64,000 bases of DNA, from assembly GCA_046048135.1 (NCBI GenBank), contig JBJOGR010000044.1, forward strand, positions 3,300-67,299, given 5' to 3'. Origin of the DNA: Actinomycetota bacterium. Its GTDB lineage: Bacteria > Actinomycetota > Actinomycetes > S36-B12 > UBA5976. Positions 58,154-58,288 of this stretch are shown here, piece by piece. Numbering within the stretch: position 1 is the first letter of the stretch; each line of letters begins with the position of its first letter. A program made the translations under genes and the position numbers. A model generated the notes under the pieces. It had not been told where the DNA came from, made no database searches, and worked only from the letters and a program-made list of their open reading frames with translations.

Positions 58154-58182
58154 TTGACAGGTCTTTTTTAAAATGTCAGAAT
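58154..58182 (+). promoter_or_regulatory. candidate promoter with consensus -35 and extended -10
   Basis: TTGACA (58154-58159), 17-nt spacer, TGT-CAGAAT (58174-58182). It is back-to-back with the - strand candidate promoter. Confidence 0.5.
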
Positions 58183-58187
58183 TAACG

Positions 58188-58259
58188 TGCGAGTGGAATT
58201 TAAATTATCCTTTGAGACTTTCCCATTTGGCCCCGTGAAAGCGGGGCCAAATCATTTTT
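58188..58259 (+). ncRNA. roughly 70-nt promoter-to-terminator RNA: candidate moeZ leader/attenuator or small RNA
   Basis: Starts about 6-8 nt after the -10 element and ends at the intrinsic terminator. Contains TGCGAGTGGAA and TCCTTTGAG, both identical to the + strand of the adjacent tRNA gene. Confidence 0.45.
58225..58259 (+). terminator. strong intrinsic terminator 29 nt upstream of moeZ
   Basis: ATTTGGCCCCG (58225-58235), TGAAAG loop, CGGGGCCAAAT (58242-58252), then CATTTTT. Confidence 0.8.
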
Positions 58260-58288
58260 ACAAGTCTTGCAAGATTTAAAAAACATTT

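Follow-up and report, generated by a model that had tools for sequence, protein, structure and literature searches.

Organization of the region between the GATase gene and moeZ

We analyzed a stretch of 64,000 nt from contig JBJOGR010000044.1 of an Actinomycetota bacterium, referred to here as the window (35% GC), and focused on the region between two divergent genes, a GATase gene on the minus strand and moeZ on the plus strand. This region contains a non-canonical tRNA-like gene on the minus strand and, on the plus strand, a predicted RNA of about 71 nt with a candidate promoter and a 3' hairpin, which a preliminary description of the window had presented as a promoter-to-terminator RNA of ~70 nt. 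The features that bear on this RNA are as follows.

57927 to 58285 (approximate limits), between the divergent GATase and moeZ genes: insertion of ~360 bp that holds the tRNA-like and small RNA genes, delimited by empty sites and common junctions
57981 to 58054, minus strand: non-canonical tRNA-like gene, of the Thr type in its acceptor stem and T arm; no other tRNA was found in the 64 kb
58154 to 58159, plus strand: -35 hexamer TTGACA of the small RNA promoter, invariant in four of four lineages and followed by a 17-nt spacer that varies
58174 to 58182, plus strand: extended -10 element TGT-CAGAAT, in which the TGT and nAnAAT positions are invariant, at a constant 6 nt from GCGAG
58189 to 58259, plus strand: predicted RNA of ~71 nt, from the putative +1 at G58189 to the end of the U-tract
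58189 to 58198, plus strand: block 1, GCGAGUGGAA, complementary to the tRNA anticodon loop and to the 5' strand of its stem; GCGAGTGG is invariant
58208 to 58216, plus strand: block 2, UCCUUUGAG, complementary to the D arm of the tRNA; the consensus fold pairs it with block 1; CTTTGA is invariant
58219 to 58230, plus strand: invariant UUUCCCAUUUGG, alternative partner of block 1, overlapping the foot of the hairpin
58225 to 58252, plus strand: 12-bp GC-rich hairpin with a GAAA loop, identified as an inverted repeat and by folding, followed by CAUUUUU at 58253-58259

Orthologous loci were obtained by exact-protein look-ups of MoeZ homologues and by one hairpin-pattern scan. The MoeZ protein of the window was 100% identical to a protein labelled Actinomycetota from a metagenome-assembled genome at NCBI, and the next-best named homologues (Nanopelagicales) were ~50% identical. 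A scan of GTDB genomes with MoeZ gave no usable orthologue, the best among the matches listed being only 49% identical. In metagenomes, a scan with the hairpin core TTGGCCCCG-N6-CGGGGCCAA returned 114 stretches, which yielded one new orthologue (L139); the remaining stretches were unrelated terminator-like palindromes of other organisms. The loci that carry the element, referred to as occupied, were the window, L081 (identical to the window), L082, L139 and L201-L207, all from uncultured low-GC freshwater Actinomycetota, and they fell into four lineages with 82-88% DNA identity in moeZ. The loci without the element were L208, L083 and L084 (86%, 75% and 65% DNA identity in moeZ, respectively) and L086.

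At the empty sites of L208 (1795-1830), L083 (2470-2505) and L084, the divergent GATase-moeZ gap was 24 nt and read CAT-ATAGAAATAGTCTACGTTAGTAAT-GTG; in L086 it was 93 nt, and no tRNA was found at any of these four loci. The occupied sites read CAT-GAATGTAGTCT / TGCA...CATTTA / TGCTCTACGGTAGTAGT-GTG, where the slashes mark the junctions, and alignment showed that the junctions were identical across all occupied loci. Given the 24-nt gap without a tRNA at the empty sites and the junctions common to the occupied loci, the genes for the tRNA-like RNA and the small RNA are the joint cargo of one lineage-specific insertion and are present or absent together. The insertion was missing from close and distant relatives alike. 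The moeZ gene tree was star-like (82-88% identity), with the empty-site locus L208 grouping weakly with the window and L204 basal, so that a single gain is inseparable from a gain plus loss or from recombination.

Promoter, conservation and 3' hairpin of the predicted RNA

The consensus -35 hexamer, the 17-nt spacer and the extended -10 element were all found where the preliminary description had placed them, and the pattern TTGACA-17-TGT-nAnAAT scored 10/12 with the TG in all four lineages in a promoter scan. In the relatives the extended -10 element was TGT-GAAAAT, TGT-CACAAT or TGT-AACAAT. The invariant positions of the promoter region, ATTGACA and then AAATGT-n-A-n-AAT, were precisely the functional ones, and a -35/-10 pair within the 16-18 nt range of spacing is thereby conserved among the orthologues. 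The six bases after the -10 element were variable (TAACGT, ATAAAA, TTTTAT and ATTCAA), and invariance restarted at GCGAGTGG, with G58189 lying 6 nt past the -10 element, which is the expected position of the +1. Two further conserved blocks, CTGTGGATTAA and CAAAAGA, were observed at 58122-58143, 11-32 nt upstream of the -35 hexamer in an otherwise neutral spacer, and could be an UP element or a regulator-binding site.

We used the third codon positions of moeZ, which have an identity of 0.65-0.73 between lineages, as the neutral yardstick. Mean pairwise identity was 0.70 in the spacer between the tRNA and the promoter, 0.67 in the promoter region overall and 0.57 in the gap after the hairpin. 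It rose to 0.83 in the predicted RNA and to 0.89 in its hairpin, and was 0.93 in the tRNA and 0.94 in the segment 57915-57980. The predicted RNA had a minimum free energy of -24.9 kcal/mol (z = -3.5).

Alignment of the moeZ upstream regions showed conservation of the promoter, the two tRNA-matching blocks and the hairpin in the occupied lineages. A cmscan search of 57900-58350 against Rfam, on both strands and with permissive filters (E <= 10), assigned the predicted RNA to no family, and the tRNA was the sole real match; matches to Plastid-ycf2, Sso133, ncr952 and SOX2OT were far under their gathering scores and were judged to be due to chance. A covariance model (R1), built from five variants and run with filters off, detected no second copy of the RNA in the window, and the next-best match (20.9 bits) was the antisense strand of the tRNA itself. 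As a single-copy sequence, the small RNA is not a repeated element or one resembling a miniature inverted-repeat transposable element within the 64 kb.

The hairpin consists of a perfect inverted repeat (58225-58235 with 58242-58252) and a twelfth pair, U.G, that closes the GAAA loop. Folded alone it had a free energy of -21.3 kcal/mol, with 7 of the 12 pairs being G-C. Pairing was kept completely (100%) across the lineages, with one C-G pair changed to U-A by a compensatory change and one U.G pair changed to C-G, and the loop varied by lineage (GAAA, GAGA, UAAG or AAAA). The GC-rich stem-loop of an intrinsic terminator was thus found in all lineages. A U-rich tract satisfying the same terminator rule was found in the window (CAUUUUU), where it ends at 58259, 29 nt before the ATG at 58289; the tails of the other three lineages (CAUUUAAAG, CAUUUUAGG and CAUUUAAGG), with 3-4 U in L082, L204 and L205, failed the rule. 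The description of this structure as a textbook terminator therefore applies to the hairpin, which has 12 bp, and to the U-tract of the window, and fails for the U-tracts of the other three lineages. Termination efficiency is uncertain and probably differs between lineages, and some read-through is likely where the U-tract is just UUU.

The invariant -35 and extended -10 elements, the conservation that begins at the +1 and the compensatory change in the hairpin make a transcription unit of ~70 nt, as originally proposed, the best reading of the conservation pattern, and a plus-strand RNA that starts at about 58189 and carries the conserved 3' hairpin is very likely real. It could instead be a functionless relic, a decaying partial tandem duplication of the tRNA in which the promoter and terminator are fortuitous or are no more than an outward promoter and an insulator of the inserted DNA. 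The tRNA similarity is indeed confined to ~28 nt whose interior has decayed differently in each lineage, close relatives without the element apparently do well, and the clade is narrow. However, GCGAGTGG, CTTTGA, TTTCCCATTTGGCCC, GGGCCAAATCATTT and the critical promoter positions are invariant next to non-coding DNA with an identity of 0.57-0.70, the hairpin contains a compensatory change, and conservation starts exactly at the predicted +1. We therefore regard a relic as very improbable.

Attenuation by a leader peptide had also been considered, on the basis of a 21-codon open reading frame (58173-58238) that exists in the window and has its stop codon in the hairpin loop. This frame is reduced to ATG-TGA in the L082-type lineages and to 9 codons in L204, which refutes it, and it lacks a Shine-Dalgarno sequence; moreover, its ATG precedes the predicted +1 and overlaps the invariant TGT of the extended -10 element. 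No conserved short open reading frame with a ribosome-binding site was found, and the chance that such a peptide operates here is practically negligible.

Blocks matching the tRNA and predicted internal pairing of the RNA

The sequence TGCGAGTGGAA occurs at both 58017-58027 and 58188-58198, and TCCTTTGAG at both 58036-58044 and 58208-58216. The two pairs of blocks are collinear, with offsets of 171 and 172 nt, which bears out the earlier report of two tRNA-identical blocks in the same order. They map to nt 28-38 and nt 11-19 of the tRNA; since the tRNA is encoded on the minus strand (57981-58054), the plus-strand RNA is complementary to these nucleotides. When the intergenic region was shuffled 20,000 times with its dinucleotides preserved, 173 of the shuffled sequences matched the tRNA over 11 nt or more on either strand and 4 contained two collinear blocks of 9 nt or more, indicating that the paired tRNA-matching blocks are not due to chance. 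The 11 nt originally given for block 1 hold for the sequence identity; within the RNA the block would measure 10 nt, as a start at G58189 leaves T58188 outside.

The extent of the matches differed by lineage. They were 10 + 9 nt in the window, 10 + 11 nt in the L082 type (GCGAGTGGAA and CTTTCCTTTGA), 12 + 12 nt in L204, with one G.U pair each, and 8 (+3) + 9 nt in the L205 type. The stretch between the blocks, of 5-9 bases, was different in every lineage. In some lineages the similarity is longer, about 22 of 28 nt, which points to a partial duplication; the simplest history would be that the blocks are the ends of a ~28-nt copy of tRNA nt 10-38 whose interior has since decayed.

The blocks also have partners within the RNA. 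RNAalifold paired block 1 with block 2 to form a helix, P1, that consists of C-G, G.U, A-U, G.U, a bulge, G-C, G-C and A-U. An alternative partner of block 1, with no bulge, is CCAUUUG (nt 35-41; 58223-58229) at the foot of the hairpin, which is near-identical to block 2. The nascent RNA (nt 1-48) folded C2-G8 onto C35-G41 in all five variants, and the two fold states of the full-length RNA were 0.1-3.2 kcal/mol apart. These competing pairings explain the invariance of GCGAGUGG, CUUUGA and UUUCCCAUUUGG, and because the segments are invariant they allow no proof by covariation. In a covariation test of P1 and the hairpin, 15 of the 19 pairs never varied and 93 of 500 shuffles reached the observed score, so that the test was without power.

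Probable start codon and promoter of moeZ

The features that bear on moeZ expression, all on the plus strand, are as follows.

58270 to 58275, plus strand: hexamer CAAGAT, conserved inside the poorly conserved gap after the hairpin and preceded by TG in the window and L204
58295 to 58300, plus strand: TACGGT, candidate -10 element (TANNNT) of a leaderless moeZ promoter, invariant as TACG(G/T)T
58307 to 59482, plus strand: moeZ (ThiF and rhodanese domains by Pfam), 391 aa from a conserved GTG start

The annotated ATG of moeZ at 58289 (397 aa) is a product of the right-hand junction of the insertion. The relatives start at an aligned GTG or ATG, which corresponds to 58307 in the window, and their proteins are of 390-391 aa. 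ATG 58289 is therefore probably not the true start, and the start appears to be mis-annotated in genomes that bear the insertion. No Shine-Dalgarno sequence was found before ATG 58289 or GTG 58307 of moeZ; purine-rich Shine-Dalgarno sequences were present at infA, rpsM, rpsK, rpsD, rpoA and the SDR gene.

In the window, L082, L204, L205, L208, L083 and L084, the box TACG(G/T)T occupies exactly positions -12 to -7 relative to the start codon (GTG or ATG), and TCTACG(G/T)TAG is invariant in all eight aligned loci, empty sites included. The six bases between the box and the start vary (AGTAGT, AGTAAT, AGTTAT, AGGTAT, AGAGAT and AAGAAG), and the changes would be non-conservative if they were coding. 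The SigA -10 motif of mycobacteria is TANNNT at -6 to -13; ~24% of their mRNAs are leaderless, and a GTG or ATG at +1 is sufficient for translation (PMC6448022). Cofactor-biosynthesis genes are enriched among leaderless transcripts, and 14% of the leaderless genes of M. smegmatis have leadered transcripts too (PMC6448022). From the absence of a Shine-Dalgarno sequence and the invariant TACG(G/T)T at leaderless spacing, which is the same in empty sites, we infer that moeZ is transcribed without a leader, starting at GTG 58307, and has kept its own -10 box from before the insertion. On the opposite strand, the GATase gene has a similar arrangement, TGC-AAGACT-ACATTC-ATG, running from 57929 down to 57912. 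The likeness of the GATase and moeZ boxes suggests that the insertion split two overlapping divergent -10 boxes, leaving one for each gene.

These results run counter to the preliminary description, in which transcription of moeZ appeared to depend on read-through from the upstream promoter across a gap where no -35/-10 pair was seen. That gap contains the conserved CAAGAT, which may be a weak -10-like element, and the TACGGT box lies downstream of the hairpin, in the same position relative to the start as in relatives without the element. With moeZ apparently leaderless and transcribed from a promoter of its own, its dependence on read-through finds no support: moeZ probably does not depend on the promoter of the small RNA, and read-through transcripts into moeZ may nevertheless exist. 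A moeZ promoter thus seems to be present downstream of the terminator, which by the earlier reasoning leaves at most a small RNA or a tRNA remnant. The speculative link from MoeZ to tRNA thiolation found no support.

The main rival explanation is that the RNA is a cis-acting leader or attenuator of moeZ, with 58154-58182 as the main or a second moeZ promoter and the hairpin as a conditional terminator. Pairing of block 1 with CCAUUUG would open the four basal A-U pairs of the hairpin and part the U-tract from the stem, allowing read-through; with block 1 engaged in P1 or bound by a ligand, the full terminator would form. The alternative pairings that this requires (B:A, A:C and C:D) were found in all five variants and were near iso-energetic, and CCUUUG (block 2) and CCAUUUG are near-identical competitors for block 1, with all three segments invariant. 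The hairpin lies 29-36 nt from the annotated ATG, and the weak U-tract in three lineages makes read-through likely. Against this stand the invariant TANNNT box at leaderless spacing from GTG 58307, which is also found in relatives without the element, and the fact that those relatives express moeZ without such a leader. Furthermore, a read-through mRNA would have a leader of 100-118 nt without a Shine-Dalgarno sequence, neither alternative helix has covariation support, and no riboswitch or attenuator family matched in Rfam (E <= 10). We consider attenuation of moeZ unlikely, if a serious possibility, both as a general reading and in the mechanism given here.

The tRNA-like gene and its complementarity to the RNA

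The neighboring gene had been treated as an ordinary tRNA gene. ARAGORN called it tRNA-???, with no anticodon assigned, in every called locus, and it matched the Rfam tRNA family (RF00005) with 52.7 bits (gathering score 29) and an 8-nt anticodon loop, ACUCGCAG. RNAfold gave a cloverleaf with the same 8-nt loop. The cloverleaf has its D-loop and T-loop elements (U8, A14, G18, G19, A21 and TTCAAAT), and no 7-nt anticodon loop of the canonical form (U33, purine at 37) was found: the alternative 7-nt reading has C33 and C or U at position 37. A viral scan with the 3' half of the tRNA matched phage tRNA-Thr(UGU) genes, whose acceptor stem and T arm have exactly the same sequence, so that the body of the tRNA-like gene is of the Thr type.

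Copies of the gene were located elsewhere at L082 2190-2263 and L204 786-859 and in L205 and L206. Its identity across lineages was 0.93, versus a neutral value of ~0.68. The anticodon-like triplet was CGC in most loci and CGU in L082, and disruptive changes were found in single lineages: C5.A68 in the window, A51.C63 in L204, U56 in L205 and the loss of G18 and G19 in L202, where ARAGORN no longer called the tRNA. A loop triplet that varies between close relatives, together with the 8-nt loop, suggests that the tRNA-like RNA is not decoding. Candidate roles are those of a non-decoding RNA or of a frameshift- or reassignment-type tRNA; alternatively, the gene may be a paralogue of tRNA-Thr(CGU) that is slowly decaying.

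The predicted complementarity between the plus-strand RNA and the tRNA is real and was found in every lineage that carries the element, to a varying extent. Co-folding the RNA with the tRNA was 4.5-14.8 kcal/mol more favorable than folding the two separately. C-to-U changes, two of them in the tRNA of L082 and one in the RNA of L204, produce G.U pairs. In L082-type lineages RNA nt 19 pairs with tRNA nt 20 as U-A or U.G, and in L204 as A-U; the two are mismatched in the window and in the L205 type. RNA nt 11 and tRNA nt 27 form a G-C pair in L204 only. In the L205-type RNA, a change of A9 to U breaks block 1, and in L202 the tRNA has lost G18, G19 and part of the D-arm match with the RNA unchanged. 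The correlated-substitution test thus found wobble-preserving changes and two pair-creating changes as well as pair-breaking ones, and their polarity is ambiguous. Since L204 is basal in the moeZ tree, its extra pairs may be ancestral identity lost elsewhere.

These data are compatible with functional pairing to the tRNA and do not require it, and differential decay of an ancestral duplicate explains the changes across lineages equally well; functional pairing as such appears to us rather improbable. The rival explanation built on it is that of a tRNA-directed antisense RNA, or of a tRNA-responsive element that is not a T-box, which would sequester the tRNA-like RNA or be switched by the tRNA binding block 1 and freeing CCAUUUG. 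It would account for the complementarity in every lineage, the several substitutions that keep pairing and the gain on co-folding, and it fits the consistent co-inheritance of the two genes and an odd anticodon loop that suggests a non-decoding role. However, with L204 basal, the decay of a duplicate fits the same data, and the pairing is broken by A9-to-U in the L205 type, mismatched at nt 19/nt 20 in the window and L205 type, and partly lost in the L202 tRNA opposite an unchanged RNA. In addition, the D arm is buried in the folded tRNA, the blocks have an internal explanation in P1, and the conserved sequence and structure of the T-box are absent, to judge by the lack of a match to RF00230. 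This explanation is, in our view, improbable.

In its most far-reaching form, the small RNA and the tRNA-like RNA would be a functional pair, a tRNA-responsive switch independent of the T-box that was born of an antisense copy of its own ligand and is carried in a two-gene cassette of ~360 bp; we take this to be a long shot. The mechanism imagined for such a pair, in which the anticodon loop would "kiss" the 5' end of the small RNA so that CCAUUUG is freed and the terminator completed, or in which the small RNA would titrate the tRNA-like RNA, seems just as doubtful.

Proposed origin and role of the small RNA

The explanation that we favor, and to which we give about an even chance of being correct, is that the element is an independent, lineage-restricted small RNA gene of ~71 nt (58189-58259, plus strand), part of which derives from the 5' half of the tRNA, copied in antisense. 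It would have arrived together with the divergently oriented tRNA-like gene in the insertion that split the overlapping -10 boxes of the GATase gene and moeZ, and would be transcribed from a strong promoter of the sigma-A/sigma-70 type (TTGACA-17-TGT-nAnAAT) and end at, or be stabilized by, the 12-bp GC-rich hairpin. The 5' third of the RNA would be the antisense copy of the D-arm-to-anticodon segment, made by partial duplication, of which only two blocks were kept and may now serve the RNA itself, with block 1 (GCGAGUGG) pairing with block 2 (CCUUUG) or with CCAUUUG. Small RNAs of Gram-positive bacteria use pyrimidine-rich stretches as seeds, and block 2 and UUUCCC are pyrimidine-rich stretches that could be seed-like. 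As moeZ seems to keep its ancestral TACGGT box and leaderless GTG start, the hairpin would mainly insulate the moeZ promoter from the strong upstream promoter.

Several points weigh against this explanation. The +1, the 3' end and the leaderless moeZ start are all read from sequence patterns. P1 is weak, with two G.U pairs, a bulge and one pair broken in the L205 type, and no covariation backs the internal structure proposed for the 5' half, nearly all informative columns being invariant. The U-tract is poor in three of the four lineages, so that the RNA may often run into moeZ, which blurs the distinction between a small RNA and a leader. The clade is narrow, comprising four lineages at 82-88% DNA identity, and no trans target is named for the small RNA.

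We compared the candidate with known systems. Trans-acting bacterial small RNAs, such as the actinobacterial 6C RNA and further small RNAs of Gram-positive bacteria that are rich in pyrimidines, combine a promoter of their own with a short 5' domain and a terminator hairpin. Like 6C and the small RNAs of Gram-positive bacteria, the candidate is ~70 nt long with a consensus promoter, a conserved 5' end and a GC-rich 3' hairpin, and its conserved pyrimidine-rich UCCUUUGA and UUUCCC could pair with purine-rich ribosome-binding sites. Unlike 6C and all Rfam families, it has no sequence or structure match at E <= 10, and unlike known small RNAs it has a U-tract that is weak in most lineages and a 5' domain derived from tRNA antisense.

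The T-box (RF00230) shares with the candidate a position upstream of a gene, complementarity to a tRNA anticodon, location before a terminator and an alternative pairing at its foot. As noted in the preliminary description, no T-box motif is present: RF00230 gave no match at E <= 10, and Stem I, the specifier loop, the T-box sequence and the antiterminator, which were not sought singly, went undetected. Whereas a T-box pairs with a 3-nt codon and UGGN, the candidate has 10-12 contiguous nt complementary to the loop and stem and 9-12 nt to the D arm. The downstream gene, which apparently has its own promoter, encodes MoeZ, with ThiF and rhodanese domains, and is neither an aminoacyl-tRNA synthetase gene nor one of amino-acid biosynthesis or transport. 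A T-box-like mechanism thus has no support.

The three mutually exclusive pairings with two near-identical competing segments resemble those of the trp and pyr attenuators. Unlike these, the candidate has no conserved leader peptide or known site for a sensing protein, its alternative helix removes 4-5 basal pairs and leaves an 8-bp GC hairpin, and moeZ keeps a -10 box. The Moco riboswitch (RF01055) is likewise found upstream of a gene of the MoeB/MoeZ family, but it gave no match at E <= 10, and the candidate is far too short and lacks the Moco-motif architecture. The tRNA-like gene, with its Thr connection and 8-nt anticodon loop, recalls the yeast mitochondrial tRNA-Thr1, a natural tRNA whose anticodon loop is likewise enlarged to 8 nt (PMC3113583, PMC4267643). 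That tRNA is organellar, derived from tRNA-His and proven to decode, whereas the present loop is ACUCGCAG and its triplet varies between CGC and CGU.

If correct, the favored explanation would add a previously undescribed small RNA family in abundant, uncultured low-GC freshwater Actinomycetota. To our knowledge, almost no regulatory RNAs have been described in that group. It would also provide a natural example of the birth of a small RNA from an antisense copy of part of a tRNA gene, and of a compact insertion between two overlapping leaderless promoters that destroyed neither of them and whose junction supplied an in-frame ATG (58289) that led to a mis-annotated gene start. The significance is below what had first been hoped, as the links to moeZ regulation and tRNA thiolation are unsupported and the clade is narrow; the main value lies in the birth of a small RNA from a tRNA gene and in the pointer to the odd tRNA beside it.

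Mechanism of insertion and flanking elements

Transposition as the mechanism of the insertion is not established. A target-site duplication was considered and rejected: the 9-nt repeat AGTCTTGCA (57921 and 58263) is exact in the window lineage only, and the junction repeat TAGTCT/TGCTCT is degenerate. Integrase att-site remnants duplicate the 3' part of a tRNA, and such a remnant was also rejected, the part copied here being nt 10-38. The whole insertion gave no blastn match in phage genomes, the anticodon arm of the tRNA gave none in a scan of viral contigs, and the small RNA pattern matched only coding sequence at 54% GC in viral contigs, which was judged to be chance. A phage origin is thus unsupported, as the viral and phage searches gave chance matches, no match or a match to the Thr-type tRNA body only.

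Two further elements flank the tRNA-like gene.

57941 to 57982, minus strand: conserved hairpin that directly follows the 3' end of the tRNA-like gene and precedes the GATase start, identified as an inverted repeat; 0.95 identity
58063 to 58071, minus strand: candidate extended -10 element TGT-AAATCT of the tRNA-like gene, in the conserved block ATAGATTTACATTTT; its +1 would lie ~2 nt before the tRNA 5' end

In the segment from the 3' end of the tRNA to the GATase start (57915-57982, minus strand) lies a hairpin of 10 bp, GGGAGTGATT/AAyCACTCCC, that has no U-tract. One of its pairs, A-U in the relatives, is an A.C mismatch in the window. This hairpin may be a processing or stabilizing element, or a terminator lacking a U-tract that precedes the leaderless GATase promoter TGC-AAGACT. 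The two divergent promoters of the insertion share an inverted repeat, TTTTyAAAATGT (58069-58080 and 58165-58176), which comprises the end of the spacer and the TGT; the minus strand before the tRNA reads TTTTCAAAATGT-AAATCT, and the plus strand before the small RNA reads TTTTTAAAATGT-CAGAAT.

A second, older difference in gene content was observed at this locus. In the window clade, L208 included, a pseudouridine-catabolism pair (a PfkB kinase and an Indigoidine_A/PsuG glycosidase; 55469-57228 of the window, minus strand) lies between the SDR and GATase genes; in L083, L084 and L086 the pair is absent and the SDR gene abuts the GATase gene. Downstream of moeZ, rpmJ (ribosomal protein L36, 37 aa) is uncalled in most of the orthologous loci, the matching region of the window being 59805-60118, and is called between infA and rpsM in L086 (4042-4155) and L201 (3834-3947).

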